NCBI GenBank assembly: GCA_051362555.1 | Contig: CM120641.1 | Location: forward strand, 17,670,001 to 17,734,000 | Length of the DNA: 64,000 bases | Direction of reading: 5' to 3' | Origin: Lingula anatina | Lineage: Eukaryota; Animalia; Brachiopoda | In this document: piece after piece, positions 9,701-38,835 of the stretch | Layout: the number at the start of each line of letters is the position of its first letter | Position numbering within the stretch: position 1 is the first letter of the stretch | The notes under the pieces: generated by a model | Database searches by the model: none | What the model was told of the DNA's origin: nothing | The model's input: only the letters and a program-made list of their open reading frames with translations | Position numbers and translations under genes: made by a program

Positions 9701-11456
9701 TTTAGGGTAGTTATGCTGTTTTTCACTTTTTTCAACATATATGCAGCACCGATAACATGATAAGTGGAAAACCATTTTACCTTTTGGTTTCAAACTTACA
9801 GAACTAATGAATATTCATAATATGCAGGTCAAGTTTGAAAATCAGTATGATTGGGTCATTTTTAGGGAAGTTATGCTGTTTTTCACTTTTTTCAGCATAT
9901 ATGCAACACTGATAACATGATAAGTGGAAAACCATTTTACCTTTTGGTTTGAAACTTGCAGAACTAATGAATATTCATAATACGCAGGTCAAGTTTGAAA
10001 ATCAGCATGATCGGGTCATTTTTAGGGAAGTAATGCTGTTTTTTCACTTTTTTCAGCATGTATGCAACACCTTTGTGCTATATGATGGTACTGTATGGAT
10101 GGCAGTCTATAAAATTGTCCCTTGGGTGATCACTAATTAAATTAAGGTCTATACAGTCACTTGCCTACTCATTAATTTTCAATTGGCCATTAAATGAGAT
10201 TACATAAAAGACTCCTTGAGATTTCCCTGTAAAGTCCCATAGGTTTAGCTCTCTTAACTGTGTCACAAAATTAGGATTTGGTGATAATTGTGCAGATAAA
10301 TGGTGTTTAACATTGCAAATAAATTTACAACAAAAAGAATGTGTTATGCCAACATGCTATAGATGAATAACAGTGCTTTATTTTTCTCAAACTTGGTGGG
10401 GTTATTAATATCAAGTTAATACAGCTAGATTAAAAGTTTGAATAGCAGCTTTATTGGAATTTTTTTTTACGTTTTATTTAAAAAATTTTTTAAATTATTT
10501 TTCAAACACTAGCATCTTCAAGATGTGATTTTTTACTCCCATCCACCAGAAGTGCTGTGCATTTTCTGTATTTTTGTATATAATTGTTATTTCTTCAGAT
10601 TTAATTCTTAGGCATGTTAACAGTCTCATTATGGAACTAATAAGATATGTAAAAGTGTTGTTTTGACATTTTATGCTTCTTAACAATATTGTTTGTTGAT
10701 TATATAAAAATGACAGTAAACCTGTTATAATATTGTGCATTGTGTAATAAAGTATCATAAATGGAAAGGAACTCATCATTGCAGTTTGTCAGATTTAATC
10801 ATTCACTATGTTCAGCATCTGCAAATGGAGCAAATTGGACATTGAAAATTGTTCTATTGATATTTTTCCTATGTCAACAATTTTCCTAGTTGAACATTTA
10901 AAAATGACAGTTTATTGATCATTTTGTTTTAAAAAAGGTGTTGAAAATGGAAAGAAAATCATTTCAGTACAGTTATCTCTTGTTTACATTTTGGCATTTT
11001 GAAAGTGTGACTCTGAACTTCCATGGCCTTGAAGACCTTCCCAAATCACATTTTCTGAATATTCATGATACTTTTATTTTTTTATAAAAAATTATATGGT
11101 CATTATGCTGTTAAGTATTATGTTTTATTGCATGAAAGTTGAAGAAAACCCTATTTTGGACACTGCTGCCAGGAAAGCGATTAAGGGAAAACCATGGTAC
11201 TTACGATACTGAAACTTACTGAAAAGTTTCATAAGACAGAAGTGCAGCTTGTGTTTGAAAACCAGTGTGATTGTTTTCTGTTTTGGAGGCAATGCAGGTT
11301 TATAGAGTGCTATACTGGCATTTTCAAGTTGTGACTTATCACTCCCATCTGCCAGGAGCCCTGTACTCTTACTTTGTAACATTTTCTGTATTTTGTTAAG
11401 TTACAAGAATGATTCTTAGGATTGACATACAGCCAAAAAAAAAAAATAAAAATAAA

Positions 11457-14400: not shown

Positions 14401-17400
14401 TAAATATATTGTAAATATAACTGACCAGCACATTCTTTAAAAAAAGTCCACCCTCCCCCATCTCAGCTAAATGTCTGAATATAAAAAAATACTGTTTTTC
14501 ACTTTTCTCCATTTTTCTAGCTCCATTTCAATTAAAACTTGCATGTTTTGCCTTTTTTCTTTTGAAGTCAAGTTTGAATATGTATTAATGTATTCATATT
14601 TATTATATAGGCTGAGTTGGTTGCCAGTCCAGCAGATAGTCATATTTCTTATCTTCCTCTGGCCCACATGTTTGAAAGAAACATGCAGGTAAATTATATT
14701 ACCTTTGTTGAAGTATAGTTTAATTCCCTATGTTAATAAAGGACCGGAAAATTTGTTAAGCAAAGAGAAATAACCTTGATGTAGAATCAAGTTGTTTAAA
14801 ATAGATCAGTATCAGAACTTAATTAAAACTGGTCTCCCTTCTAGGCTCTATCTTTTCAATCAGGAGTGCGGGTAGGTTTTTACCAGGGTGATGTGAAGTT
14901 GCTTATGGATGACATGCAAGCTCTCCAACCCACATTATTTCCAGTTGTTCCTCGTTTGCTGAACAGGCTGTATGACAAGGTATATCTTACTAGTAATTTT
15001 TACCTTTACACAAAAAACAAAACAAAAAAATTTATGAGTAATATTGGATTTTGCTATCAAAAAAAAGGTAAATTTTGTGTCTATGAATCTTATTTAGTGA
15101 GCAGAAAAGCAGCCTTAAGGATATTGTCACCCTTCACCCAAAACTCCTTATTTACTGCCTTACATACATTCTTTTGGGTAATAAATAAATCTTCAGTCTT
15201 TGGTGACTAAACATTTACACATATGTAATCTTACAGGCGACATCATAATTGTGATTTGGGGGTAAAAACTGAAAAATCGGTTCCTCAAATTTTTCTTTTA
15301 CCTCAGCACCCATGACCACCATTTTAATGCTGATTTAACATAGATGAAATTGTCTGTAAAGCTCAGCAATGACTTTACTTTCTACAGCGATTGAGGTCAT
15401 TCTATGTTAACCAAGAACTGCTGGCAAAATTATAGCGGGCACTGATTGAGAGTGTACTAACACAATCTTTCACCATCTGGTACGGTAGTGCTACAGCAGA
15501 GGACAAGAATCGCTTCAATCGTGTAGTAAAAACTGCCAGGCACATTGTAGGTAGGGACTTGCCATCAATTGAATGTTTGTATACGAGATGGGTGCTCAAG
15601 GAATTGAAGTCAATCATGGGTAACCCTGGTCACCCAGGGAATAGCCTACTTATGCAAAAGTTATCGAGCCGACTACGGTCATTAAAAGCAACCTCCACGC
15701 ACACTAAAATAGTTTTTATCCATTAGCAGTACATATTTTTAATGAACAAAATGTATTTTAATTATTCCCATTGTATTACATTTTATCAACAGATCATACC
15801 AATTTTCATTTTATACTTGTATAAATATGACAATAAATTATTATTATTATTATTATTATTATTTAATGAAACCATTTAGTGTGCCAAAACCCTCCCAGCA
15901 ATTTTTCTTGAAAGTCTTAGTTCAGATTTTATTGATAAGCAAAATAATACCTTTGTTTAATGAAAATCTGTAATTAGAGGGGTATAACTCCATAACAAAA
16001 ACATTTATACCAAAATGACAGCATGGGATTGTAGCCTATACACTACTGGTCAACTCTCAATTTTCGTAATTAAATCTCGGAATGAAGTTATGTCCCACAC
16101 CTATTGCTATCTCACCTTAAAATAGAATAGTGTTAAATTGACGTTTAAAGCTTTGAATTGCCTATGCTTTTACATTGCAATGAAAAAATGTAAATGCTGA
16201 TATTTTATATTTTTGAGGGGTTTTTTTCATTGTTTTAAATCAGCATAAAGATAGATGCATTATTGAATAATTAGATGTAGAAAAAAACTCATTTTCGGTA
16301 CCTGGATGAAAATAAAGGGTAACAATATCCTTAAGTATCTAAGAATCTGCATCAATTGCGAAATTATATTAAGATATCTCAAATCAAACCATACTTTGCC
16401 TAGTGGGCCCATCCTTAAACATTGAGGTTTTGCCTGAAATCAAAGTTGGCCTTGGATTTTTTCTCAAGAAATAGATGAAGGATTATGTTTTCAAAGATCA
16501 AAATTTCAACTTTCACAATTAGATTTTCTGTGATAAGACATTAAGGGTGGATTGTTGTACTTTAGGTCTAGTTATAGTAGAGTGACTTCTCGATCCTTTA
16601 TCAGATTTTAGCTGGAGCATCAGAAAGCTGGATTAAACAATACTTGGTGTCTAAGGCTTTGGAAAGTAAGAGCGCAGAAGTAAAAAGGTAAATATCAGGT
16701 ACCAAAACAATCGCACCAGGTAACAACATCTCAACCCACCAAGGTAGAAAAATTTGTTTCGTATCTCTGTAAGTTGAAAGTTGCACCAATTACATGTAAT
16801 ATATTAGTGCATTCAGAATAAGTTGATCCCCAGATTAACAGAACTCCGACTAAATAGATTATATATGGCCCAGTCACTTAAAAGCCATGCTGCTAATTCC
16901 CTGATGGTCTCCCCGCCTCCACACGTGCCATATTAAATGGATTGAATATTGGCTCCAAGGTTGAATTGCTAGGTCCCTGCAAGGATGGCAGGTGTAGAGA
17001 CGGGGAGACCATCAGGAAATGAGGGGCACTGCTTTTAAGTGGAGCCGGACATATTTAGTTGGTGGATCAGTTAATTCACGGATCATTTGTTTTAAATGCA
17101 CTGTATGATTGACTAGGATCATTTACCTGCTACTGGTTCAAATAAAAACTGTGATGGCTGATGGCAAGGAACAAACAGACACCACCATATAATCAACTGT
17201 CACTGTTCTTTGTCTTTGTTATCATGATTGTTATCAATGAAAAATAATTGGAACATATATTTTCATAATCTGGTTTATATTTAGTACTACCTGTATGACA
17301 TTTTTCGTCCTCAGTTTATATACTTATCAAATCCTTATCTATTTTTTCACATTTCAGGGGCATTATTAGAAAGGATAGCATATGGGATACACTAGTTTTC

Positions 17401-18509
17401 AGAAAGGTTCAAGATTTGCTGGGTGGTAATGTCCGTTTTGTAGTAACTGGGTCAGCTCCGCTTGCACAGAATGTTATCAACTTTGCTCGATGTGCTTTTG
17501 GATGTCCAGTGAGTTCAGCTTGAGTTCATTGTGTAACTTCCTTGGAGTTAGCCGTTATCACTGTAATATTTTAATTATATATCGCAGTTGATTTTTTGTG
17601 CCTGTTGACTTCTCTCCTAGCAAACTTGAGAAATAAACATGTCATTTGGATTGGTTTTATTATATTATGGAAAGTGATAATTTTTACTTGAACCATACTG
17701 AGTACCCTTAAAACTGAAAACCATTTCCACGGCAATGAATATATTGTATTCTGCTTTGTATTGCCTCTATTTTAATGTTTCCTGTCAGTTATATGAGGCT
17801 TATGGTCAGACTGAAGCTACAGCTGGAGTTACAGTGACTATTCCAAGAGCTCCAGTTTTAGGCAAGTACATTTATTCCTTCTTTCTTATTATAATTGTTA
17901 TGGAATTCTACTTGTACTCTCTCATATGGAAATCTGAGTAAATTGGAGATGTGTGAGAGTGAGACAGATGGCAGCTTACAAAAGATTGCTGAAATCAGTT
18001 GGGTAAGTGGTATTATAAAGTTCTTTGTAAAAAATTCTGGTTTGTTTGTGGTTTTTACAGATAAGGACAGTTGTATAATAAGGGCTATATGCCATTTTTC
18101 TGAAGATATAGGTATTGATCATCAATAATGTAAATTATGAGATGTAAATTAAAACTGTTATTGTATTTCTGAAAATACAGCACATAAAGTTTTCAATTGA
18201 AAACTGCAGAAAGTTGTAATGTTGAGCATTATGGTCAGCATCTGGTCATCTATCTCCAGGTATTAATGTGGGGCCACCAATTCCCTGTAACATTGTCAAG
18301 TTGATAGATGTGCCAGATATGGGATACTTTTCCAAAGATGGAAAAGGAGAGGTACTTGTAGACTTAATAACAGTATACATTTATTAAGCTTGCTGAAATA
18401 GTTTTTTATGTACAGACACAGATGTATCTGTACATATAGCCATCATCTTTATCTGTATGACAAAAGATAAAGATGATGGCTATATGTACAGATACATCCG
18501 TGTAAGTTG

Positions 18510-18542
<33 letters not shown>

Positions 18543-21032
18543 GTCTTCAGATTCAATTCTTAGGCATGTTAACAGTCTCAATATTGAATATTTAGCTTTG
18601 TTAAGTGTTCATTTAACATTATCTGCATCTAAGCAATTATGTTAGTTAATTATTTATAATAAAATGATAGTAAATCTGTTACTGCATATTGTATTATATT
18701 GTCTGAGATGTTTAAAAGGATTTGTTAAACTGATAAAGATTTTAGTATTGTTTTCAGACAATTTCCATGGTATTCAAGTTTATTTGCCACATATTAAGGA
18801 TTACCTGTTGACGATAAATACTTTAAATATAAGACTCCTCCTTATGATTCTGTATTTGTGCACAATCTGTTAGACATTAACATTCCTACTTAAGAAGGGT
18901 AATTACACTGTCAAACCAAATTTTTTAGATTAAGTATGTGTGTTTTCTCTTAATTGATCATTAAACTATTTTCATATTGTACAAAATCCCTTCATATTTC
19001 AGGTATGTGTGAAGGGATCTAACCTGATGATGGGATATTTCAAGGAGCCAGAAAAGACCAAAGAAGCTATTGATGAAGATGGCTGGTTACATACAGGGGA
19101 CATTGGGGAATGGACACTAGTAGGATGTTTTTTATGTGTCATATATTTATCACATTAGAGTATTATGGAAAATGCAAATGTTACATTTAACTTTTCTGTA
19201 TAAAGAGCTGTGTACTTTACCATATATGTTCACATATATGTAGTATTTCTCAGTTATTATATAAGCATTGATTGAATACATTCAATGACTTGTTTTTAGA
19301 ATAACACATTTAATGTAAATTTAATTTTTGATTGACATATTTTCTTTCTAGAATGGAGCTTTAAGGATCATAGACAGAAAGAAACACATCTTTAAGCTGG
19401 CTCAGGGAGAATACATTGCACCAGAGAAGATTGAGAATATTTATGTCCGCAGCCCTCTGGTGGCACAAATGTTTGTTGATGGAAACAGTCTTCAGGTGAG
19501 TATTTAGAGGTTTTACTCTGCCCTCTTCAGTGACTGTGTACAGATGTGAAATATAAAACCATATGAATTTACTTTGCAAGATTCAAGTTGAATGATTAGC
19601 CTTCCAGACTGTTGAATATATGCTCTGCTGTAAAATGTATTTTGTAAAAGTAATCAATATTTTTCCAGTCCTGTATAGTTGGCATAGCTGTTCCAGATCC
19701 AGAGGTCTTGCCTGCTTGGATCAAGAAACAAAATATCACAGGGTCCACAATGGAGGAATGGTGCAAGAATGATGTGAGCATTTATTGAAAAAGTTAATAT
19801 TGATAAAGTCTGTTGCACATGGGTGCTTAATTTTGGCTTACTAAAATATTCTTATGTGGCAATTGCTTTAAGGAGAAAGCCATTGTGTGCAGATGATTGA
19901 TTTTTGTCTTTTTAAGCACTTCATGGGTTATGTATGATATTTTTGCAGTGCATAGAGAAAGCTTTCCCATGTGTGCTAAGAGAAAACTTTTTCCAAGAAG
20001 AGCATAAATAACAATATGAAATGCATAGTCAGCAGCACTTCAAAGGGTAAAAATCATTTATGAGTCACACCACACTTCAGAGCTTTCTCCTTCATGAAAG
20101 TGCAATTCAACTGACTTTTTGGTGTGCAGCAGGCTTAAGTTTGTAAGCTCATGCATGAAGTCCATTGTGTAGAAAAGAATATATGGATGTATGGGTGCTC
20201 TTCTCTCTATGCCCCATCCTCCTTTAAGGACAGTTAAATATTATTGGCTGTCAAGTATTCCATATGAAACTAATGTTATCTATCCTACACAGCTAGTACC
20301 AGTATTATTATTCCCTGTAAAGAGATTATTTATTAGCATTCAAATGTAACACTTTTTAAAATAAAAATGCAATTTGACATTATATGATTACTGACATAAT
20401 TGTTTTTAAGGTCCTGAAAGATGCCATTTTGAATGACATTTTGGAATGTGGAAAGAAGGCAGGTCTTCACTCCTTTGAACAGGTATTTATTTCCTCCCAC
20501 AATTTTTATCTGCTCATAATATTGAACTGGGGCATTTTATCAAATTTCTTTTGCTCCATTTTGATATACTACACTACACATAATTGGCAAGGAATTCATG
20601 TTTTAATGTCAATATTAAGTTAACGGTAATGTCCTTTAAGTTAACGGTAACTGTTCATGAAATAGAACTTTTATTACTTGAAGTTTATCAAAACTAATTT
20701 GATTCCTTACAATTATGACAAATGACCATCACTTTGATGTACAGACATCAAAATGCCGGATTATATTGTTAAACATTGGTTGAGGGGGTTAAGTAAAATA
20801 ACTAGTGCAATTATTTTCTCAGAATGACAGAAGTTCGTGTATTTGTTCATTTTGCTGAAGACTTTGTTGATTTATGATTTGAATTTTTTTTCAGGTGAAG
20901 GATATCTTCCTTTATCCTGAGTTGTTTTCAGTGGAGAATGATCTGCTAACACCCACATTCAAAGCCAAGAGGCCACTACTCCGCAAACATTTTGCTAAAC
21001 AAATTGAAGAAATGTATGAAAAATTGTCTTAA
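4610..21032 (+). CDS. ACSL1: Long-chain-fatty-acid--CoA ligase, ACSL1/5/6 group (19 coding exons; about 711 aa from ATG 4610 or 665 aa from ATG 4748)
   Basis: Exons 4610(4748)-4852, 5211-5319, 6908-7077, 7488-7587, 12450-12622, 12809-12841, 14078-14129, 14317-14384, 14611-14688, 14845-14979, 16605-16687, 17358-17508, 17789-17861 (GC donor), 18260-18351, 19003-19119, 19352-19495, 19669-19773, 20411-20482 and 20895-21032 join in frame. Motifs: AMP-binding [13 protein letters not shown], gate [48 protein letters not shown] and [10 protein letters not shown]. The symbol is indicative; the gene is probably co-orthologous to vertebrate ACSL1/5/6. Confidence 0.95.
5771..6111. mobile_element. Kolobok-like MITE, family K1, copy 1
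   Basis: Terminal inverted repeats (TIRs) AGGGATAATAACT...AGTTATTATTCCT followed by TTAA; homologous to 47307-47638 and 52467-52800. Confidence 0.75.
8131..10140. mobile_element. Helentron/HINE-like non-autonomous element carrying two arrays of a ~161-bp satellite (ACSL intron 4)
   Basis: T-rich head with hairpin ATGTACAGACAC-AGAT-GTGTCTGTACAT, then a (GTC/GCC) microsatellite. ACCGATAACACGATAAGTGGAAAA units start at 8222, 8384, 8545 and 8706, with a second array of about 4 units at about 9415-10068. Confidence 0.75.
10595..10985. repeat. Diverged copy of the internal segment (about 9020-9405) of the Helentron-like element; a further copy lies at about 18545-18700
   Basis: Shared CAGATT(C/T)AATT(G/C)TTAGGCATGTTAACAGTCTCA and downstream sequence. 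Confidence 0.75.
12867..13493. mobile_element. PIF/Harbinger (Tourist-like) MITE, copy 1
   Basis: About 210-bp inverted arms GATCGCATTCACAAC...GTTGTGAATGCGATC flanked by TTA on both sides (TWA TSD). Confidence 0.85.
13605..14022. mobile_element. Tc1/mariner-type MITE remnant
   Basis: TACTGAAACAAAATAGAAATGCAT...ATGCATTTATATTTTGGTTCAGTA flanked by TA; the TIR resembles that of the Tc1 element at 49573. Confidence 0.6.
15119..16330. mobile_element. Kolobok-like MITE, family K2, copy 1, interrupted by a LINE insertion
   Basis: TTAA|GGATATTGTCACCCTT...AAGGGTAACAATATCC|TTAA; an uninterrupted homologue lies at 55212-55915. Confidence 0.8.
15339..15865 (+). mobile_element. 5'-truncated LINE 3' end (Rex1/Babar- or CR1-like), degenerate
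   Basis: Peptide [13 protein letters not shown]...[38 protein letters not shown], then AATAAA and an (ATT)n tail; absent from the K2 copy at 55212. Confidence 0.75.
16807..17102. mobile_element. Old, diverged Harbinger-like MITE related to 12867-13493
   Basis: Imperfect inverted arms AGTGCATTCAGAATAAG...TTAAATGCACT and internal inverted CTGATGGTCTCCCCG/CGGGGAGACCATCAG. Confidence 0.6.
18404..18700. mobile_element. Second, truncated Helentron-like head with a perfect 34-bp fold-back and (GT)n
   Basis: Same TTTTTATGTACAGACACAGATG head as 8131; 18421-18454 is the exact reverse complement of 18465-18498. Confidence 0.75.
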
Positions 21033-24361: not shown

Positions 24362-27300
24362 ATGGGAAGAAAGAAGAAGAAGCAGACGAAGCCATGGTGT
24401 TGGTATCCTTTTATGAAAAGTCACAATTAACTTGATAAAGGTTGAAAGTTTGTACGGGCATTGTCTTGGTTGCGACGAGGCACATTGTTTTCATTTATGA
24501 TAACACAAATATATTGAAAGTGTGGGAAATGCAGCCAACAGAACGGTTGCTTTTTGTCACGGTGAGTACTTTTGGGTCAGAGTTTTGTATAATTTACCAC
24601 CGATCGACGTCATAAATATTCACTTCCGCACAGTCTCAAAAGTAGTTACATCCACGCTCGGCTGTCACCTTGATTGGATAGTAAACGATTGTCGTAAAAT
24701 CGCTAAATGATATTAAAACCGGGTGCATAAACTTGAAAACCACCTACAACAACCTTGGACTACCACATTAATCCAATACAATGCAAACATAAACTATAAC
24801 AAGTGGTTAAAGCCTTCAAACCGAATGTCGTAAAGTCCCCATATACCTCCATAGAGACAATAAAATAGAAGAAGCTTGTGAAACAAGAAAAATCCAGTTC
24901 CAACATAATAATCGAAATAAAATACTGCCGGGCATCGGAGCGGCCTAAAACTTGGCACGCTTACCGCTAATACTGCAGGCTACATCATCCCGTCGCTCGT
25001 TTGTAAATTCCGTGCATGGCATACGCACAATCAAACCGTAAAAAACAAATTCTCGGGGTGTCGTTGGCTAGGTCCACTCAATAATCCAATTCAGGATATG
25101 ACGTAACCGCAGAGGTCGCATTGTCCAATGGCATGGCTTCTTTTTCGTAATGGTAGGTTAGAGTGGACCTGGCCAACGACACCCTGAGAATTTGTTTTTT
25201 ACGGTTTGATTGTGCGTATGCCATGCACGGAATTTACAAACGAGCGACGGGATGATGTAGCCTGCAGTATTAGCGGTAAGCGTGCCAAGTTTTAGGCCGC
25301 TCCGATGCCCGGCAGTATTTTATTTCGATTATTATGTTGGAACTGGATTTTTCTTGTTTCACAAGCTTCTTCTATTTTATTGTCTCTATGGAGGTATATG
25401 GGGACTTTACGACATTCGGTTTGAAGGCTTTAACCACTTGTTATAGTTTATGTTTGCATTGTATTGGATTAATGTGGTAGTCCAAGGTTGTTGTAGGTGG
25501 TTTTCAAGTTTATGCACCCGGTTTTAATATCATTTAGCGATTTTACGACAATCGTTTACTATCCAATCAAGGTGACAGCCGAGCGTGGTTACATCCTGTT
25601 GTTGCGACAGTACGACGAGTGAAGCTTATTATACGTTTAAAACCTCCCCCGTCTCTTTATATTTTCTGAAGAGATCATTTGATAATGCCCATACCAGCAA
25701 AATAGTTTACTTGTTAATCATTGTAATATTTATCAGATAACTCTTACTCGCTGCCTCATCCTCAATTGGACTACTGCCAACAACTGGACACCGAAAATAA
25801 TAAGACAAGTGACTTCACATTAAAAAGAAATAATTAACTTGAAGACTTAGATGTGGACACTGATGACAATATTTACGGGATGTATACAGTTGTTTTTTTA
25901 TCGATAATACAACAAATTGCAGTCAATCTGTTCAACCATCAGTAACTTTCTGTTATTTACAAATGTACCTGGCCCCCATTTCACAAAGAATCCATAGTTG
26001 ACTAGCTCAAGCTGAGTAACCTAGCTAGGTTGACTGCGCTGCAGTCGACTAGTCACTGGAGTGTAGTGTATAGAATATTGCAGTACATGTTTATGATCCT
26101 TAATACCCACCTCAGGTATTGTAATAGGGAGTTTGATGATGAGAAAATCCTGATACAGCACCAAAAAGCAAAGCACTTCAAATGTCATATATGTCACAAA
26201 AAGCTATATACAGGCCCTGGGCTATCTATACACTGTATGCAGGTAGGAACCTTTTCTTTTTTAAAACAAGTCGTGCTGTTTTAGTTTCAGCCAAGCAAAT
26301 ATATTTCATGAAATCATTGACAGTATGTCAAATTGGAGAAAAATAGTCACAGCTGTTTCAACCCATAGGATTCTTAACCAAAGTAGAACATCTGAACATG
26401 TTTTTGAGAAGTTGCATACTATCTTGAACCATGTATCTTGTCCTAAAGCTGTTCATGCAAAGAAATTAAAATGTTCACCTCTGCAGTTATTTAATATTCA
26501 GCATTTCTCCTTTTTCCCTTCTAGGTACATAAGGAAAAAGTAGACAAGGTTCCTAATGCCCTACCTCATCGAAGCAATATAGACATAGAGATATATGGTA
26601 TGGAAGGTATACCTCCACAAGACTTAGAGGAACATGAGAAGCAGAGAGCTGGGAAATCAGGTATCATCTCTAAAGATCTAATTTGCAAGATTAGTTCATG
26701 AAAATATATAGTCATCTTAAATGTTTCAAATTGACCAAAGTAAAAATTAAGTAGAAAGTTATTTTGACCAAATTAAGAAATGTAAAGATATGTTAACTTG
26801 ACTGTTTGATACTGCCTGAAGTTATTTTATCGCCTTTCAGACGAACCTCCAAGTAAGAGAGCACGTTCTGATGATGAAGATTCACAAGATGCCACCAGTA
26901 ATAATCAAATGAACCCTAATGGACCTATGCCCCCTATGATGCCAGGTATGCCAGGCCCTGGCATGCCCCCCATGGGACCTATGGGAGGGCCAATGGGACC
27001 AGGGATGCCGCCCATGGGACCAATGGGCCCTGGGTTTATGCCAGGTTTTATGGGTCCTATGGGAGGACCTGGTATGCCTCCAATGCCTCCCATGGGTCCT
27101 ATGGGGCCCATGATGGGTGGACCTCGAGGACCTATGCCTCCGATGCATGGCATGCCTCCACAACAGAGACCCCAGCAACCTCCCCCAACTTCTACATCAA
27201 CCTTACAGAGTTTGCCTTCCAAGCCATTGTTTCCTGCTGCTGCAGCAGTTACACAGGTAAATCAAAGGGTAACCATAGTATCCAAATTCCAAGTGTCAGT

Positions 27301-29129
27301 TCAAATGTAGGCAATCTTAAACTGGAAACTATCAGCCAGTGTGTTTTATGAATTAGTGTTTGACATATTGTGTGCATTTCTGTAATCTGCATGTCTGATG
27401 ACACAATGACACAAATTGGAATGGTTTCGGTTCTAAAGAAGTCCTTGTCTAAGTGGTGTAGATAGTCTCTCTCACATTGATAACACTGATTTAAATGGGT
27501 TCATTTTGTTGGTTGATAATATTTAGTTACCTGAAATCTTCTAAATTTTAAAATTCGGGTATCTGCACAATACTCCCCATTATATATGTTTACATGCAAT
27601 TAATTTTGACTATGATGCTAAATACTTAAGGTGTTAAGTAGCTGACTGAACTGACACTATTACTGTCTCTCCTTGACAGGGGTAAGTGATTGAAATGGAC
27701 TAATCAAAGACATCCTGTAATATTGGGTTATATGTAATAATGCAAAACTTTCAACTTCACTCATCTGCGCAACTGCATTAAATGAATAAAAGAATGTCAG
27801 ATTCCATTTCTTGATAGCAGTCAGAGAGCTGATTATGATCATGCATTAAATGGCTACATATGACAAAATTTCAGTCACAGCCTAGACCGTCAGCACCTGT
27901 TGGCCCCGATTTCAAGCCTAAGATGTCAAACATGCCGACCTCCTCTCAGCAGTCTGGACCTGTGAAGCCCACGTTTCCAGCTTACTCCAGCTCTGCCACC
28001 CTGTCAGCACCCCCCACGGCACCCAGTGCCACAATCAGTGCAGCACCCACTGTCAAGAAACCAGAGTCGAGTTCAGGCATGACAACAAAGTTGGTCCACC
28101 CTGAGGAGGATATATCTCTGGTGAGGTGTAATATATATATATATATATATGTTTATTGAAACAAGCATTGCAGCAAGTGCATGTGTAAAAAGGATATTGA
28201 AGGACACCTCCTTATTGAGATTGGTGTTGTGTTATTTTGTATGTGCTGCAGAACTGCCATTAGTACATACCTGTCTGATAGTGCTGAGTGTTTGAATTGA
28301 TTCACCTTTAGGCCAATAAAATCTCTCGGGCTACATAAAATAGAAGTTTTTTTAAGTTGGCCAACTTTTGCAAGATCATGGTGTCAGCAAAATGAAGTTA
28401 CTGGTTTTGTTTTACATCAGTGGATAAGTGTACTTCAGTATAGTCCTTGCTAAAAAAGTTACATTAAAAAATTCACATAAATGTAAATGTGATAAGGGCA
28501 TATCAGTACAGTTATCTTTTCTAAAGAAGCTACATTAAAAATACACATAAATGTAAATGTGAAGATTCATTACTGGAACTTCTTGTGTATTTTAGGAAGA
28601 AAAACGAGCTAGCTTACCAAGGTATCAGAATCGTCAAATGGCGCCTCAAACTACAATATCAGCACCACCCATGATGAACATGCCACGGATGCCACAAGGT
28701 AGAGCAAAGTGAAATGCAGTTTGAAGTATCCCAAGATATAACAGTGAACTGTTATACTGTGTATATGGACTGTTGTCATATTCCCTTATATGCCACAGAA
28801 AACAGATAAAGTGATCACATATCTTTTTTCTCCAAAAATGAGAAGACTAGAGAGCAATTAAGTTCAAATTATGTTATCCCATTTACATACAGAACAAGCA
28901 ACATCAAAAAGCCATTGACATGAAAGGTAATCTTTATCATATTGTGGGATAGATAAATAGAATGAGGGTAGACAGTTATTTTTACCCAAATCTTTTTGTT
29001 CCAGGTGGTCAGATGCAGCCTCCTATGTCCCAGATGAACAACGGTGGGTCTAGACCTCCAGGTCCCCCAGGGCCTATGGGGTATGGCATGATGCGTCCCC
29101 CAATGATGGGAGCACAAGGGAGATATTGA
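24362..29129 (+). CDS. ZNF207: BUB3-interacting GLEBS-motif zinc-finger protein ZNF207/BuGZ (7 exons, about 397 aa)
   Basis: Exons 24362-24402, 26116-26242, 26525-26660, 26841-27256, 27875-28120, 28596-28698 and 29005-29129. N-terminus [60 protein letters not shown]; G/P/M low-complexity region; GLEBS motif [22 protein letters not shown]; C-terminus GRY*. Confidence 0.97.
24403..26115 (+). other. U12-type (minor spliceosome) GT-AG intron, ZNF207 intron 1
   Basis: 5' splice site GTATCCTTT and branch site TCCTTAAT about 10 nt before the AG, with no polypyrimidine tract. Confidence 0.9.
24653..25587. mobile_element. Fold-back MITE with 427-bp near-perfect arms and an 8-bp TSD (hAT/P-like)
   Basis: 24653-25079 is the reverse complement of 25161-25587 (two mismatches seen, near the centre); GTTACATC is duplicated at 24645-24652 and 25588-25595. 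Confidence 0.9.
27635..27771 (+). other. Duplicated structured element with AG-GG-GTAAGT, copy 1 (ZNF207 intron 4)
   Basis: About 85% identical by eye to 29310-29443; no TIR or TSD visible. Confidence 0.7.
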
Positions 29130-29309
29130 CAGCATGGAGCTAAGTGGGATACTGGGGAACTTTGAGTTACCTGTACTAGCATGTTCTACATCCACTGCTT
29201 TAGTGTTATTTCTTGTCTCCAATATGCTATTATCATTATGATTTTAAAAGTTTGTAACTGTGCTGTGTTTTTTGTACACACATGCCTGCTGCAACCTGAG
29301 CTACGGCGG

Positions 29310-29443
29310 TAAGTAGCTGGCTGGACTGACACTACTGTCTCTGCCTGACAGGGGTAAGTGATTGAAATGGACTAAGAAAAGACATTGTGTAATATTGGAT
29401 TATATGTGATAACCGAAACCTTTCATCTTCACTCATCTGTGCA
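29310..29443 (+). other. Duplicated structured element, copy 2 (ZNF207 3' UTR), beginning at a GTAAGT donor
   Basis: Homologous to 27635-27771; CG|GTAAGT at 29309 and AG-GG-GTAAGT at 29350-29359. Confidence 0.7.
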
Positions 29444-29980
29444 GCAGTAACGTCAGCAAAAGGTTTGTTAAAAGTTGGTTGATCTTGTATACTTTGAATG
29501 TAGAGAAAGAATATTATGTCAAAAAATACTTCACTAAAAGACATGCATCTGGAGTCACTTAATGTGACTGTATCAAATAAGTGATTAAAGTTGTATTACT
29601 TTCCTTTGTAACACCAAAATGAAATCTTGTATATATTGTAATTATGAGAAAGTTATCTGAAATTATATGAAATCTGTGCGCAGTTGTTCAAACATTGTCA
29701 TTTTTGAGCTTATTTTCCAAAGCAAAACTTAATAAAGGGAATGTAATCTGGTTACTATATTTTAACATAAGTTATATCTTAATAAAATTTGTAGAAAGAG
29801 GGTTTTTGTTTTTGTCCAGTTATAAGGTTTGTATGATAACGCATGTTCTTAGTAATATACATAAACATGTAGTTTGAAATAGCAATCAATCTTGCTTACA
29901 ATTAACATGGTGAAAAACTGCCAGTTCCATAACAAGGTACTGTGCCATGGATATCTTTGCTGTGAGATTCGTACTTATGT

Positions 29981-30720
29981 GTCACAACAAGTATCAGGAG
30001 GTGCTTGTTGTTGGGCTTAGGCCCCCAACTATGTTGGCGACATTTTAGTGCAAAATGACTATTTAAATAGTGATGTTGATATGCTCCACAATTATTGCTG
30101 GGCAGCAGCAGAAACTGGAGGCAAGTTTTTTTAATCTAAATCGACAAAAACATAAAAGTTCTCATAAAGGCAATCAGCAAATCTAACGTTTAATCCTTTG
30201 AAAACACAGGAGAAGCAGAGACGAGAGGCAAGTTTTGAAGTCACAACAGAAATGTTGTTGGGCCACAAGGTCCCCAACCTTTTTGGTTGGTGATGGATTT
30301 TTATCCCTTTTGATGTCCTGGAATCAAGCACCGTTACGATATTTAGTCACAACAGATTTAATTCTGTTGTTGGGCATCAGCCCCCAACACATGTTGGTGA
30401 CAAAAAGAGAAAGAATTATGGCGCTTCACACACATTTTTGCTTGCTTATTTCAAAATTCACTAAGACAGTAAGTTTTCTGTGCTAATCCTAATTCACACA
30501 AGAAACATAAATAGACATGAGCTTGCAGTCAGTGCAAGCTTCTAGAACTGCTAGTAACACACTTCTCTCTCCTTTGTTGTACAGTGTTGAAGATGAGAGG
30601 GAGAGGTGAGCATCTGCTGCTGTGACACATGGGACACTGTGACAGGCAAGTGCCTTAGTCCGTCACAGCAAGACAGTCTTGCTGTTGGGCTAACAATGGC
30701 CCCCAACATATGTTGGTGAC
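29981..30720 (+). ncRNA. Cluster of four putative four-way-junction RNA motifs (29981-30041, 30240-30294, 30346-30401, 30662-30720)
   Basis: Consensus GTC-[ACARCA..TGYTGT]-T-[GGGC..GYCC]-[CCAAC..GTTGG]-Y-GAY with variable loops, compensatory changes, G-U pairs and a GAAA tetraloop. Confidence 0.6.
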
Positions 30721-33097
30721 ATCGTTTTAATTTGTAAATTAGTACATATTTATTCCACGTTTTCCTACTGTGTGTGCAAACAGCTTCTTTTAACAGATAG
30801 GTTTAATTCCATAATGAAATTACTGAGTTAGGTCACTCAAGGAAGGGAGGTGATGGGGTACAGGGTACATTTTTAGTCTTCTGGCTTCTCCAGAAACTTG
30901 TCAATTTTTCTTTAAAAAACTTTTCAATATGAAGTGGATTGTTTGATGACCTCTGATAAGCTTGGACCAATTTCGTGACTGATGTCACTCTAAGAGTTTT
31001 TTTGGGAAGGGCAAGGCAAATGCTCCAATTTGGGATTACTGGAATTCTTTCCATTCCTGTTTTCTTGAAAACCCCTTCAACAGGTTCAAGCACTAGGGCA
31101 TTTATTTTCTCACCTCAAAATTCCATTTTTAAATATGCCTTTCTTTGGGAAAGAAATTGCAAACAAGAACAACTGCTTGGCAGTTGTATTTTTCATGCAG
31201 TTTTATTTCAGTTGCACCAGCAAAGGATCATTTCAGTCAGTACGTGGAGATAAGAAGTTAATATGAAGGTGGAGTATTTTGAATTATTCTGAAAGGAACA
31301 TTGAATGCTAAACTGCTTCACACACTTTTACCGTCCATATCATACTTCTCAGTTGTTGTGTAATGATGATTGCTAATTCTGTTGTGAATCAAATCAATTT
31401 TTAAAAAATACTTACTTGATATGTTAAATGTTTTGAGAGAACTGGAAGCATTTGCATGTAATCGTAATAAAGTTGATTTTGATAACCAATATCAGTTATA
31501 ACTAAAAGTTGAGTTGGTTGCTGTAATTTTTTTGAGTCATTAAAAATATTGTTAAAAGTTTTTAAAAATTCTCAGTAAGAAACAAAATAGAAGAGGTACG
31601 CGTTGAGTGGTTTTTATTCTAGTCAAGAGTAGAATGTCTATTTCTAATTACTCGGTATATTTTTTCACATACAGTAGCTAGAAAGTAGAATGACATTGCA
31701 GTATTTAGGAAAGTGTCAGACAGCTCTTTCTATGTTTAAGATTAATTGTTTTAGAAATATGTCAATTGTAAAAATGGAGGATGTTTAATAATGATAGATG
31801 ATGAGATGGCACTTGGGTTTTGTATCTGGATGTAGTCAGTGTAGTGGAGACTACAAAAAAGTTGTCTGAAAATAAACTATAAAGACATTTTTTTAGACAA
31901 GGCATTGCCCTGCACTGATTGGTCATATCTGGTTGTTGTCAGATATTTAGGCATTATCAGATGTCAAAGGACAGTTACCCGAACGCATGCAAGTCATTAC
32001 TAAAGACGGACAAGAAATATTGAATCAGTTTGACTGTGGCCATGATAAACTATGAACTGTTAATTGGAGGAACATCTGAATTGATTAATTTTCAAAAAGA
32101 AGAGATGTCATTCCAAGGAATGTAATCTTTATTTGATTTACTCACATTTATAGAAAGGTTTATTTTAAAGAACAATGAAGAGTAATAAAGTCTATTCAAA
32201 TTATATATTTTAAAAATTTTATTGTGTTATCTTCTGACATATGAAAGATGTGTAATAAGTTAAATCAAAAAATTTTCTTGCAAGATCTTTTACAGAACTT
32301 GTACCTACTTATGCTTATGTTGGTCACCCATAAAGTGGGCAAGCATTATATTATATAATTTGACATATTCAAGTATAATAAAAGTGTAAATATTGCTGAC
32401 AAAATAAATAGTCCAAATAAAAAATTTAATTAGACATCCCTGCTGCTAATTTTCAGAAGAAAAGTCATAATACAATTTTCCTCAGCCAAGTAGTTCACTA
32501 GTTTAAATCAAATTGTTAGCATTGTAAAAAATATTCCTCAAGATCAATATGTGATATGTTATTATCGACAAAGTAACATGAATGCTGTGAAGCTGAACTG
32601 CAGGCGGAAGCGATATGAGTAAAGAAGCACATTAAGCTGGTATTTATGTCAAACTATTGCCACTAAACTCAATTAAATACCTCCAGAGTGTTTCAAATAA
32701 TATAGGTGAAAGAAATTCCACAAATTTTTAGTTACATTCTTTTTCGAAAACGGATATTAATTTCTGTCCTTTAGGGACTGGAGGAAAAATTTACCACAAT
32801 TTGAAGACCATGCAGGTTAAAAGCCTTTTTTCTACTGCCCAAGAGATTTTGTTTTTGGCATGTGGATTTTACTTATGCAAAGAATCTGGTACTGATATCT
32901 CTATGTTGGAGTGCAGATTCTCTCGTTTATGTATCTTTAAGAAATTATCTCCATTATTTCTTTGCCATTTTTGCTTTATGCAAATCACTAAAATGTCCAG
33001 ACTGGAGAGAGGTCTCCTTAACAGCATATTTTGCTTCCTCCATTATCATCTGGCATTTCTCACTGACATCTTAAAAAGGAATGTGGAAAATATTGTT

Positions 33098-36000
33098 TTA
33101 TGATGTCACCATGTCCAACATCATCAGTGCCGCCTCCCCTGCATCTGCAGGTACCTGAAGAATTAAAAGAAAGAAAAGGGTCATCTTGGGTTTTTGGACA
33201 CTTAATCTTATAAAATCTGTAGAAAAAGAAACCTTTTCCATTATTAAGCTAGCAAAAATTGATGCCTTACATCCGTCTCTTCAGCACTTGCCATGTGAGC
33301 CAAACAACTTAATGACAATAAGGGAAATCCTAAAATGCGCTTTACAATTAACATTACTACAAGCCTGTGTAAATATCTTGCACATTAGACAAGAATTTGA
33401 GATGAGTGTGACCTTTCAATGAATGTTATATTGATGCCATCTCCAGAAAATGGAAACCTTAAATTTACCATGTGTCCAGCATCAAGAATCCAATAGAAAC
33501 CCAGATTCTTGTACTGCTTGACAAATGCAATGGGATTTTTCTTCAAGGGATCCAGCAGAGGTTTCCTTTTAGCTGTATTGAACTGATGTAAGTATGGCCA
33601 GGTAAGTTTTTGAACCCATGCCTCAGTGCCTAAATAAAGAAATTAATTTCAAAGCTTATTCCTGAACTTGGTACTTATCAAGTATTGAAAAAGATGAAGC
33701 AAGACATTTTTATTAGTTGCCTTAAAATTACTGGGGGTTTTCTTTGGAGATGCCCTGTTTTCATCACAGCGACTTTACATCCTTTGCTGGTAAAACCTTG
33801 TCTTCCTGTGGAAATGTGTGTAATGTTCATTTAGCTTCAGCCATGCAAAAGAAAAAACCTAAAAGTTGAATTTGTAGCATATTTGATTACCACATCATAA
33901 CTGAGAGAAAGTGGACTTTGTTACTCGTATTCTTAATGCACCAAAGGCATGTTTCTTTTAATTTCTGTACTTTCATTATCTAAATCAAACTGCCTGGCAC
34001 ACCTGCCCTTACAAGCATGCAATATTTACCCAAAGTGTCAACTATTAGGTCCAACTGCCCAGTATAAATGTTTACTGAAAGATTTGACATTCTAAGAAGC
34101 TCATCAACTGGAATATAAAGAAAATAAAAGTTCACTTTCTATGCTAGAAATTTGTACAAAACTATATTTTGTGTCAATATAAGAATTATAAATCTGGTCT
34201 CTTAAAAAAACTTGGTAAAATATCCAAATTCCCTTTGTAGGTTAAAGCCTGTAGCCAGCATTATTAAGGGGAGGATACCTTTTTTAAGTGGACCTTTTAT
34301 GTCCTTGCTTGACCCAACTTGAGGAATCTCACAGAATAAGATTTTGACTCAGAGTGGACCTTTCCAGCCAAAAGGGACGTTCTTTCAAATACATCTTCCT
34401 GCCTTTTTACAGACCAGAAGTTTTGATAACAATGTACAAAAAATTAGTCAATTTTCAGCAGCACACAAATATTCAAAATCAAACCTGATGCTCACCAACA
34501 TTTACTACAGGTTTCATGAAGTCCTCTTTTAGGTGCTCAAACACCTTATCAGACTGACCTGAGAAGGAACATAAATAGAAAACTTTTGAATATCCTGAAC
34601 AACATATTTTTTAATTCATGTTTATAGAGACAGTTTAGTAGAATTATTAAATTTATTTTTTCTTCAAAACCTTTTTTTTTTAAATCAACATAAAAAAGTA
34701 CACCCAAAACTGCAACATCACAATAAAAAATACACAGAATTTACATATTTCATAATAAATGGAACATTTTCCCCAATTCTAATTGTGATTCAGTATAATT
34801 CAGCTCAATTTTACTAACCTCCCCAAGTAACATTACGTGGGATGATCCCCAATTTTTTTCTAATTGGTCCATTCATCAACTGATCCAGGGAATCACTGCT
34901 TAAATGTGCCAAGTTTCTATGGACAAGCCTTTCTAAAAGAAGGAAGTAAAACATCTGTAGATTTTTTCTAGTTAAAATTAAGAAGGGGATAAAATATGGA
35001 ATATCAAAGGTTGCAAAATTAATTTTTTAGATGTGTACAATCATGATAAAGATATCTTATTACTCGTAGGATGGCTACAGACCTGTATAATTGTTTTCAT
35101 CCACTAGAGCATAGAGTATCTGTTCTATCAGATCTCTTCTAAAATCCTATCGGCTCAGGTAGACCATAATTTTATATTTACCAAATATAGATTGCTCTTT
35201 GTACTTCTTGTAACTGTGTTTGGTATCTTCCTGGCTGTTCCACTGTAGGATGTTGTAGAAGTTCACTCCACCAGTAAGACTTTCCAATATTTCTTGTGTC
35301 TTCCCCCATTCATCAGTCGCTAACCCATACTTCCCATTGTCGTAAGCTTTTCTGGCCACCACAACACTACCATTAATAAGCTGTAGTCCATGTTCATCAA
35401 TAAGAGACTGAAAGTGCAAAAACGCATTAAGATCATAACATAGATTGTGTTAATCTCTTGCACCAGACAAATTTTTAATTAATCTTCAAAAAATGAAAAA
35501 GGACAAGAATAATTTGCAGTCTCCTGGTAATATTTTACCTTTCACTGGTAACACCACTTCTAAAAGTTTATAGTTCTAAAAATACTCTTCCTATTTTACA
35601 TAAGCATCTGTACTACCTTACCGTAGCCTTCAAGTAAGGTCCCCATGTAAATGTGGAGTCCCAGGGTGAGATCCAGGAGTCACCCAGAGCAAAACCCTTG
35701 AAATTGCAATCAATTTGCCTGGCTATAATGGCCTGAAATGATAATATGAGAACAAAGAATAAAAAAGTAAAGAAACCAATAAAACAAACTGTTCTCAAAA
35801 AATGGCCTTTCTGTAGTAACAGAACAGTTTTAGTATCCTTTAAAAATGTCAACATGGACTCTTACGCAGTAGTTTATGTTGTGCCAACTTTAAAATCTAC
35901 TATTCTCAAATTCTATAATATGTAAAGCATTCCAAACTACCTTCTGCAGAGCCAAACTAAAGCCAGCTGTCATTTTGCCTCCATAGGATTCACAAAAGAT

Positions 36001-36659
36001 AAAGAAGGGTATGGTCTAAAAATAAACAAACACCTGAAAATTAAACATAAGCATGGTTTCGACATTATCTTCCATTCCCTTTTCTGTAGTGTATGTGGTT
36101 TATTATTCATTTCATACTGTAGTATAAATATTCCTCTTGTTGGACATCTAGCTATAGTATAAACCTCTTTACATATCAAACTGAGCAGCTAGTGAAGCGC
36201 AATGGTGTCTATACTGTTACAGTTGCAACAGGCCAAAGTCTCTAAACTATGACAACCACAAATCTTGTGCGTAACACTGGTTTTCAGGCCAGGCTTCACA
36301 TGTGCATGTAGATACCAGGTAATGATAGCTACCCTGAAGTCTGGTAATTCCTTCAAAAAGGCCATAAGCACTGTAAGTAGATCTGCAGCAATCATGTCAT
36401 TGTTGGTAGTGTATGCCGAGTCATCAGTGACATAACTGAAGCCAGCTCCCACAGGATTGTCTATAAATAACAGGCTCACCTTGGACAGCTGCAAGCCAAA
36501 TTAAAGTTACGTGACAGTGATACGGTTAACCAAAGATTTGAAATACAATTAAGTATATAATTTATATTAAACATACACAAACAAAGTTAATATCCTGAAG
36601 TTTATATTTGTTCTGTACTTTATTGTCTCATCCATTTCACTGTTTATTATAGATATTTC

Positions 36660-36693
<34 letters not shown>

Positions 36694-38835
36694 TGAGTGA
36701 AAGAGAGAGAAAGGGAGAGAGATTGAGTGTATATTTAATTTTAAATCATACCTTTTCAAATTGTACTTTAGTGAACTTTTGCAATAAAAAAGTGAAGATC
36801 CTATATCAAAATTTTAAAAATGAAAACAATTTTTACGTATCCTATAAAATGAGGAAATTTTTGAAATTCAAATTCTGTAAATTCAAAACATTAACTGAAC
36901 ATTACATATTAGAAGACTAAATGTAAATACTCACAAACATTCTAGCATAATTTTAACATTATGTGTGAAATTCCATGTCTGAATTTACAAATTGAAATAC
37001 ATCTGAAATTTACCCAAGTTGTACGCCTGGGATTTTGATTGACATCTAAAGGCCCTATTTCTCCAAAATTGCCAAAACCTGTTGAAGAACCTCCAGGTCC
37101 ACCCTTGAAAATATGAAAAAAAAAATCAGGTCAATTGAATGCCCAAGCATGCCAAATCACGTCATTAATTATTCAATTGATTGACAATCCTGTTTACTAC
37201 AAAACTATATTAAATATTTTTCAAAATAATGGATAATATACCCGTGTTCTACGTGTACGTGTATGAAGCCATGGAAGAAATTACTATCATAAACCGAGGC
37301 CAGCAAATAAGTTAAAATTTATCTCTGTAAATAAAAATGTTAACTGAACATTTTGTATTAGAATACTACAATCCCAACAGAATAATGTTGGATTGTAATA
37401 CATTCAGGGAACTAATTATATAATGAAGCAGTGCCTGTACTCTGAAGTGCAAGAATTAAAAGTGTCAGATGATATGTGGAGGAGAATGAATCAAATCTAA
37501 ACTTGACAAAGAATGTTTATGATATAAGCCACATCATTAAAAATGCTTATAAAATAAACCCTATATAACAAAGAAATTTTTTAAGTGAGTAACCTATATA
37601 ATAAACATTTTTTGTCGTTTTTACTCCTTCAATGTCATATACATGTAGCATCCACCCTTCACTATGCATGTACTTCACTATGGGAGACTACTTCACAGGC
37701 CCGTAGTCAGGGGGGTTCTGGGGGGTTCAAAAGAACCCCCCTTTTTGGCCAGGAAACAGTACCCTCTGGGTAAAATTTTATCTAGGTATGTGAAGGTTTC
37801 AAGGTAAAAAGTTCACTTTTTCAGAAAAAGAGCCCCCCTTTTAAAATTCCTGGCTATGGACCTGCTTCATTAGTTTCCTGAATGTATTGTTTTCCAAAGT
37901 TTTGTTGGGAACTTCGGAATATAATATTCCTCTCAAAGAGAGCATGGATATTCTTGGCAACTAATTTGCAGGTCTCAGTGTATGACAGTGATTGTTTCCC
38001 CAGCTTCATACTTGTAAATCAGAGATATATCATACATCTTTTTTAAAAATAATTTTAATATATCTAGTTGTTTGAGGTTTGGATAATACTGATCGATTCT
38101 TCCTCAGTTATTTACATGTACATCATCTATAGTCTCCTTGTACTAATTTTTGCTTTATCCAATCAGTGGCCAGTTGGAAAAGAAAGAAAATTTTCATTTT
38201 CTGCATTAGCTAAATTCAATTTTATCTGAAACATAGGTTATATAAGTATATGTGACATGAGCTAAGATCGATATATTTCATTTAACATTACCTGTAGCCA
38301 CAATACCAGAGGCTTGGACTGGTAGTTGGTGCTTGCTGTTGTGTAGTAAAGCCACCAAAACATGTGAGCATTCTGTCGCACTTGGACATAATTCCATCGT
38401 TGTTTAGCTTCCTGGTATGTGTGTTTCAGCTGTTTGTCTACATAAAAATTGAAATTGAAAAAAAAAAGATCATTCATTCAAGGAAATTCAAATGCATTTA
38501 AAGCTATAACAGTATAGCAGTTCCTTTTGCTTCCCAAGCATAGAGGAGAAGGTGCATACGACCTTTCTGGTGTATTCTGAGGCAACATACGATCCCAGCA
38601 TGATTGCACATCTTGTCACGAGATCAGTCAGTACCAAAGTGCAGATGAATAGGTAAAAATATAATTGAAAAGAATGTCTTTTTCAAAATGCTTTAGGTTT
38701 TCCATAACTTTGATGGTCACAAAATAACGCTTTATGCTTTTTTCAGCACTCATGACATAACTCACAGCTCTGGGTTCCATGAATGACTCCTAGCACGATA
38801 AACAAGGAAATCAAATGGCTTCTGCTACCCGCCAT
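33098..38835 (-). CDS. SCPEP1: Retinoid-inducible serine carboxypeptidase (peptidase S10), 12 exons, about 448 aa
   Basis: Minus-strand exons 38835-38766 (signal peptide MAGSRSHLISLFIVLGVIHGTQS), 38437-38292, 37103-37014, 36488-36333, 36015-35941, 35732-35622, 35407-35182, 34932-34819, 34558-34496, 34107-34030, 33629-33469 and 33154-33098 join in frame. Motifs: HMFWWLY, WLQGGPGGSSTGFGNF, DNPVGAGFSY, catalytic ESYGG, ALGDSWISP, GQLDLIV and AGHMVP. Confidence 0.96.
37696..37864. mobile_element. Small MITE with CAGG termini and a 5-bp TSD, copy 1
   Basis: CAGGCCCGTAGTCAGG...CCTGGCTATGGACCTG flanked by CTTCA on both sides; homologue at 44017-44184. Confidence 0.8.

Follow-up and report, generated by a model that had tools for sequence, protein, structure and literature searches.

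The closest described counterparts of the element reported here are the USSE and the conserved U1 site of RNPC3 (U11/U12-65K) and SNRNP48, where, in the part of the source available, repeated and conserved donor-like sites lie in the gene of an snRNP factor (PMC5473595). That system uses tandem U12-type sites and U11; in RNPC3, snRNP-bound sites switch the transcript from a short productive to a long nuclear-retained 3′ UTR in a negative-feedback arrangement, and a moderate U1 site blocks cleavage and polyadenylation (PMC5473595). A structured 3′-UTR element is also present in the mRNA of the U1-associated protein U1A, whose PIE autoregulates at the level of 3′ end formation and binds U1A via loop sequences near the poly(A) site, according to the excerpted text (PMC6884704). 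In MAT2A, several conserved copies of a hairpin bound by METTL16 lie within one 3′ UTR and are tied to feedback, retention, and splicing, as the available section has it (PMC12179342).

ZNF207 (BuGZ) itself is a recent addition to this field. The zinc fingers of the human protein bind U1 snRNA directly, as well as U1-70K, with K42 being required, and ZNF207/BuGZ has only lately been shown to be a U1 snRNP helper; the RNA contacts that matter for its zinc fingers were left undefined, a limitation named in the accessible part of that paper (PMC12952242). Another recent finding, from a preprint, makes ZNF207, together with LENG8 and ZFC3H1, a factor of 5′-splice-site-dependent nuclear retention and decay: it was enriched on a reporter with an unspliced 3′-UTR donor and required for the retention and decay of that reporter, both of which were relieved by ZNF207 depletion (PMC12363940). 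These were human single-site reporters, and the available portion of the preprint describes neither a structured partner nor ZNF207 autoregulation (PMC12363940).

At the ZNF207 locus analyzed here, the repeated unit consists of a four-way junction with a GC-type donor look-alike before it and a U run after it. It resembles the USSE in that the gene for an snRNP factor contains conserved donor-like sites in several copies. Unlike the USSE, the array holds two to six GC-type look-alikes, each coupled to the junction and the U run, and is accompanied by an AG|CT site; the sites fit the major-class consensus with GC, CT, or GT at +1/+2, not the U12-type one, and feedback is something we infer here. 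The ZNF207 array may thus work like the USSE, but it is not a USSE. It differs from the PIE in that the junction loops are free, the fold is four-way, and the position is usually downstream of the proximal poly(A) signal. With the retention and decay system it shares the 3′-UTR donor, apparently unspliced here as well, ZNF207 being the factor required there, and with MAT2A the presence of several conserved structure copies in one 3′ UTR, although the hairpin fold of MAT2A is different. When the 33 aligned copies (see below) were scored with what we take to be the consensuses of the two binding motifs, both the METTL16 motif and the U1A-binding loop motif were found in 0/33, so that an earlier suggestion of a METTL16/MAT2A-type hairpin was not supported.

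The 5′ domain of U1 snRNA, as described in the part of the source consulted, has its parts in the same order as the ZNF207 junction, a likeness at the level of topology (PMC9311317). An earlier note on this DNA had raised the possibility of a U1 mimic, and it is the topology of that proposal which stood; the loops show no constraint and contain neither U1A- nor U1-70K-type motifs. Unlike U1 snRNA, the unit also has the strict Sm form after only 3 of 36 copies, a count that equally led us to reject a strict Sm site as the reading of the U run. The window motifs gave no match to Rfam 15 on the + strand at E values up to 10, and 11 related loci gave 0 family matches. Without an Rfam U1 match or U1-70K/U1A loops, we rejected a U1 snRNA or U1-derived copy; a single U1-like pattern match elsewhere (L016) was likewise not called U1 by Rfam. 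We regard the ZNF207 unit as a structured RNA family of a new kind, whose likely role is a variation on feedback schemes already known.

The junction array in the 3′ flank of ZNF207

Within the window, i.e., the whole 64-kb stretch of DNA that was analyzed, the gene and the array comprise the following features.

24362..29129, + strand: ZNF207/BuGZ coding region, seven exons from ATG to TGA (homologues named ZNF207; last intron spliced in 4/4 RNA runs)
29731..29786, + strand: two AATAAA (29731 and 29781), likely the main (proximal) poly(A) signals (depth fall in run X12)
29790..32100, + strand: low-level RNA that includes the array, from either a minor isoform with a long 3′ UTR or read-through (stranded runs X12, X15, and X16; also X19 and X20)
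29981..30041, + strand: four-way junction copy 1 (59.7 bits with the covariance model; no GC donor upstream; ATTTTA after)
30240..30294, + strand: four-way junction copy 2 (50.3 bits with the covariance model; U run after)
30346..30401, + strand: four-way junction copy 3 (61.5 bits with the covariance model; no donor, no U run)
30662..30720, + strand: four-way junction copy 4 (62.8 bits with the covariance model; U run after)

All four motifs that had been proposed here, with stems P1 to P4, were located on the + strand, 850 to 1,590 nt 3′ of the ZNF207 stop codon (TGA, 29127-29129). Their 3′-half pattern matched exactly 4 times in the 64-kb window and 0 times in each of 100 shuffles; the motifs are real and not due to chance. 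The covariance model detected no fifth full-length + strand copy in the window. The spacers between copies are unrelated, as had been claimed and as locus comparison bore out.

On the + strand, copies 1 to 4 gave folding z-scores of −4.35, −2.01, −4.14, and −3.76, and on the − strand copies 3 and 4 folded equally well (−4.60 and −3.89). Contrary to what had been asserted, the four copies alone therefore cannot give the strand, and the GNRA loop adduced for it was found in copy 2 alone; the + strand is nevertheless backed by 27 G-U versus 2 A-C pairs across 33 copies and by stranded reads. The closing stem of copy 2 is weak (predicted pairing probability, 0.14), and copy 4 has competing folds (predicted probabilities of 0.29 for P1 and 0.37 for P3). 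A conformational switch based on an alternative GTTGGG/CCCAAC pairing was rejected, since the predicted probability of this pairing was ≤0.06 in 33/33 copies.

The encoded protein, whose best named relatives are one annelid and one nemertean protein, has H41-K42-K43 of the second zinc finger. In run X12, read depth was 105 near the stop, fell through 61, 43, 15, and 3.4 across 29235-29902, and stayed at 0 to 4 over the array and on to ∼32,100, where a convergent gene starts. Exons and all reads to ∼31,700 had one orientation in the stranded runs, indicating that the array is transcribed on the + strand. The array had been placed downstream of ZNF207; it does lie 3′ of the stop, but in a region that continues the 3′ UTR and is transcribed at a low level, and short reads cannot assign this region to a minor long 3′ UTR or to read-through RNA. 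In X19 and X20, reads covered 30/30 bins of 29900-30800, and neither joints nor an accumulation of read ends was seen there. In X18, from a diverged lineage, the long form is less rare, with a depth of ∼3 to 10 versus 17 to 28 for the proximal UTR. The array occurs in poly(A)-selected and in assembled transcripts. In 6/7 loci, a poly(A) hexamer separates the stop from the array, the exception being L011.

Some further features of this region were recorded in their own right. Runs X10 and X18 to X20 carry the same species label and show ∼4 to 5% fixed differences from the window (over 29000-33100), suggesting a cryptic lineage. The convergent expressed gene (32241-38477, − strand) resembles a serine carboxypeptidase of the SCPEP1 type, and near 31,740-32,400 its 3′ end adjoins the long ZNF207 RNA or overlaps with it; exons at 14845-20623 (+ strand) resemble a long-chain acyl-CoA ligase. 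Intron 1 of ZNF207 contains a fold-back element (24652-25588) with 428-nt arms that are 100% complementary, probably a young MITE, which has a sub-threshold Rfam MIR171 match. A 145-nt duplicate, 85% identical between intron 4 (27627-27771) and the proximal 3′ UTR (29302-29443), contains CTGAC as a possible branch point, along with a pyrimidine run and CAG|GG|GTAAGT, and resembles a 2-nt microexon or composite acceptor-donor; it was not found in the other loci, and 3 X15 reads carry the flank of the intron copy. The window also holds a tandem repeat with a unit of ∼160 bp (8222-10071) and a dispersed inverted-repeat (MITE-like) family (12854-13506, 47757-47829, and 51114-51413).

Recurrence and covariation at ZNF207 of other animals

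One strict scan of metagenome contigs yielded 12 loci, mostly multi-copy; since the scan selects on the motif, this number is silent on how many animals are without it. All 7 loci with a coding exon upstream proved to be ZNF207, on the same strand as the motif: ZNF207 exons precede the array in L004, L007, L008, L011, L012, and L015, and L014 has a ZNF207-like last exon. L005 shares downstream sequence with L015, and the contigs of L006, L009, L010, and L013 carry no coding exon. L007 and L012 are 96% identical, and L012 was dropped from the counts; no other pair of loci shows long near-identity, so that up to 11 further species are represented. In a 30-residue comparison supplemented by C termini, which is a grouping and not a tree, L004 and L007 resembled bivalves and the window, whereas L008, L011, and L015 resembled an annelid. 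Every locus that could be assigned is ZNF207, and the hosts fall into two groups at phylum level, annelid-like and bivalve-like. In L008 and L011, an uninterrupted reading frame runs into the motif-bearing UTR, as expected of spliced transcripts.

Prokaryote genomes gave 0 matches to the motif pattern, and the 3 matches to a relaxed pattern in viral contigs, none of which folds as the motif, were put down to chance; one of them, L002, scores 28 bits with the covariance model since it was chosen by the same search words. No ZNF207 locus was found in the prokaryote and viral collections. No reads of run X11, from another organism, align to the stretch, which is no proof of absence.

For the alignment, 33 copies were used, omitting one four-C variant (L005), copies without the 5′ strand, and copies found by the model only. 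RNAalifold returned the four-way junction as the consensus unprompted. The named structure paired 91.2% of cells, compared to 82.8% after shuffling, with 0/500 shuffles as high, and pairing dropped to 31 to 53% when the structure was slid along the alignment as a control. Double changes occurred in 11 of the 24 pairs, a count equalled in 25/500 shuffles. The outer P1 pair is G-C in 23, A-U in 6, and G-U in 4 copies, and P2 pairs 4 to 8 covary; the 5′ strands of P1 and P2 lay outside the scan pattern. The P3 and P4 cores belonged to the search words, which makes their invariance partly circular, and model-only copies in L004 and L007 carry compensatory P4 changes. P1/P2 and P3/P4 abut without gaps, with one unpaired base per crossover (an invariant U and a pyrimidine). 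The helical core is invariant in sequence and the loops are free, there being a single invariant unpaired base.

The diverged lineage (X10, X19, and X20), ∼4% off the window, has 36 substitutions in 899 nt. Six of these fall in the motifs; three are located in loops, two leave a pair intact, and one breaks a distal G-U of copy 1. In copy 2, G-U changed to G-C at 30271, and in copy 4, A-U changed to G-U at 30692. The core was substituted at 1/144 positions versus 30/644 in the spacers (P = 0.014), and 0/6 indels lie inside motifs. The L007/L012 pair showed the same trend (3/325 versus 25/1233), which was not significant (P = 0.13). Selection on RNA structure, as postulated previously, is supported by covariation, by the RNAalifold consensus, and by the spared core. 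Given also the link to one gene, the proposal of a cis-regulatory element is likewise supported, and we have very little doubt that the junction is a conserved structured cis-element of ZNF207.

U1-site look-alikes and U runs beside the junction

The earlier note had missed the GC donor look-alike and the U run that flank the junction, as well as the other U1-site look-alikes of the region; together these offer the best hint at how the unit works. In the window, these sites are as follows.

29137..29145, + strand: AG|CTAAGT look-alike without +1 G, likely not spliceable, 9 nt past the stop
29306..29314, + strand: proximal 3′ UTR, GT-type donor look-alike with the sequence GCG|GTAAGT (no joint in reads)
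29351..29359, + strand: proximal 3′ UTR, GT-type donor look-alike with the sequence GGG|GTAAGT
30118..30126, + strand: GC donor look-alike GAG|GCAAGT, without a junction and with a U run directly after
30225..30233, + strand: GC donor look-alike that precedes copy 2 by 6 nt
30643..30651, + strand: GC donor look-alike CAG|GCAAGT, 10 nt upstream of copy 4

The MAG|GCAAGT donor look-alike AGGCAAGT lies ≤20 nt upstream of the junction in 25/34 copies, compared to 4 occurrences in 55 kb of flanking sequence, both strands included; the other 9 copies, including window copies 1 and 3, are without a donor. Among 36 GGCAAG sites, A is found at −2 in 32, A or C at −3 in 31, and T at +6 in 35. This context is that of the major-class donor consensus, with GC replacing GT. 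Downstream of the junction, a TTTT run begins within 12 nt in 21/36 copies, compared to 12% of background windows.

In the six UTRs with a located stop, 40 sites have at most one mismatch to AGGTAAGT, versus 4.4 after shuffling and 5 on the antisense strand; 5/6 UTRs individually exceed all 300 shuffles, and the excess in L011 is not significant (16/300 shuffles). AG|CTAAGT is found 9 to 69 nt past the stop in 6/6 scored loci (9 nt in the window and 10 to 69 nt in the other five), L014 having only a variant of it, and GT look-alikes come next, at ∼180 to 490 nt. The look-alikes of the window match 7 to 8 of nine consensus bases, and the real donors of the gene match 4 to 8. No splice joints were observed in the UTR in 6 RNA runs (threshold, 3 reads; array depth, 0 to 11 per run), a depth at which rare splicing at the GC sites, or splicing whose products are removed by nonsense-mediated decay, could go unnoticed, and assembled L008 and L011, which are contigs with a spliced coding sequence, keep the donor look-alikes unspliced.

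Two variant arrangements were noted. L011 has a single junction (1572-1632, − strand) ∼115 nt past the stop, preceded by AG|CTAAGT and without a GC donor; it comes before all poly(A) hexamers and represents a constitutive-UTR version of the element. In L005 (sense 890-940) and L015 (5650-5700), the sequence 3′ of the array shows a tandem donor pair with an acceptor-like front: AG|GTAAGT preceded by a pyrimidine run, and GAG|GTAAG as the second donor ∼19 nt further on.

Putative U1-dependent feedback and its alternatives

Because human ZNF207 binds U1 and takes part in the decay of mRNAs with a 3′-UTR donor, a U1-based feedback is likely, and we lean toward the view that the unit acts as a negative feedback switch through which ZNF207, by way of U1 snRNP, turns down its own mRNA. 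The donor look-alikes would pair with U1 snRNP without being spliced. When abundant, ZNF207 would stabilize U1 at the CT and GT sites that precede the proximal poly(A) signals, leading to less proximal cleavage and more read-through into the array, where the GC-donor/junction units could hold several U1 snRNPs on the terminal exon and thereby bring about nuclear retention and decay. Folding would place the U run next to the donor. The junction itself, with its invariant helical core and free loops, would probably act as a protein dock beside the U1 site, the simplest candidate for its ligand being the ZNF207 zinc fingers, although this is the least certain step.

A bolder version, which we regard as conceivable but rather doubtful, takes the unit as a natural U1 snRNA mimic beside a dead-end U1 site: the zinc fingers would bind the junction as they bind U1 snRNA, and the multivalent array would count free ZNF207 and commit its own mRNA to nuclear decay. 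Work by Zhou et al. from 2025 on ZFP207-U1 condensates reportedly places the binding on U1 stem-loop 3. What counts against feedback in general is that 9/34 copies have no donor, that the L011 junction lies upstream of every poly(A) hexamer, that the long form is less rare in the diverged lineage, and that the functional data on ZNF207 are human.

It is also possible, though unlikely, that the GC and GT sites function as genuine donors under regulation, with ZNF207 or another factor bound to the junction activating a 3′-UTR intron >50 nt past the stop and thus nonsense-mediated decay (NMD). MAG|GCAAGT is, after all, the usual form of GC-AG donors, both the window (29349) and L005 contain pyrimidine-AG stretches that resemble acceptors, and NMD targets would be scarce in these RNA runs. 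ZNF207 is moreover described, in the portion of the source available, as controlling poison exons of LUC7L genes (PMC12952242). However, the lack of a UTR joint in the 6 runs and the unspliced state of L008 and L011 speak against such an intron, no conserved acceptor was found, and several interchangeable donors together with an AG|CT site that is likely not spliceable fit binding better than splicing.

We consider it quite improbable that the array is read by another protein, be it a U1 helper or a cytoplasmic localization, translation, or stability factor, which would make ZNF207 the target but not the sensor. Junctions without a donor, as in L011 and the 9 copies mentioned above, would suit such a reader, as would the occurrence of the array in poly(A)-selected and assembled transcripts, but the junction is tightly coupled to U1-site look-alikes in the mRNA of a U1-binding factor, and none of the 12 loci is tied to another gene.

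That the motif is multi-copy and folds compactly into several stems around an invariant core might also suggest a self-cleaving ribozyme, or else a tRNA-like/RNase P substrate from which small RNAs are released or which defines a 3′ end. This we think very unlikely, given a single invariant unpaired base, no Rfam match, no ARAGORN call, and no T-loop (0/33) or hammerhead core in the 33 copies; reads and contigs run through the motifs with no end pile-up, albeit at low depth, and the tRNA-like processing signal proposed earlier is not supported. Finally, remnants of a transposon, a satellite, or a DNA-level cruciform repeat are hardly credible: the motif is multi-copy, and the copy search covered the 64-kb window and the scanned contigs, but the same gene and strand in 7/7 assignable loci, unrelated spacers, the excess of G-U over A-C pairs, and the constrained core all argue against a repeat, in agreement with the previous view that this is neither satellite nor MITE, as does, weakly, the fact that just one X10 contig matches the stretch at 80% likeness.

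Full-text literature searches found no description of the ZNF207 element, subscription papers and supplements being outside their scope; this applied equally to full texts on molluscs and annelids, in which no such motif was described, and to those on feedback through GC donors in terminal exons. To our knowledge, few deeply conserved, covarying cis-regulatory RNA structures are described for animal mRNAs.

Returning to U1-dependent feedback, a short natural junction beside U1-site look-alikes makes both the ligand of ZNF207 and its dose control testable, and the array suggests that GC- and CT-type donor look-alikes have been selected as bind-only U1 sites. If the reading as a U1 mimic were true, the unit would provide a 50-nt model ligand with which to define ZNF207 recognition, and its RNA family would be autoregulatory and date back at least to the split between annelids and molluscs.
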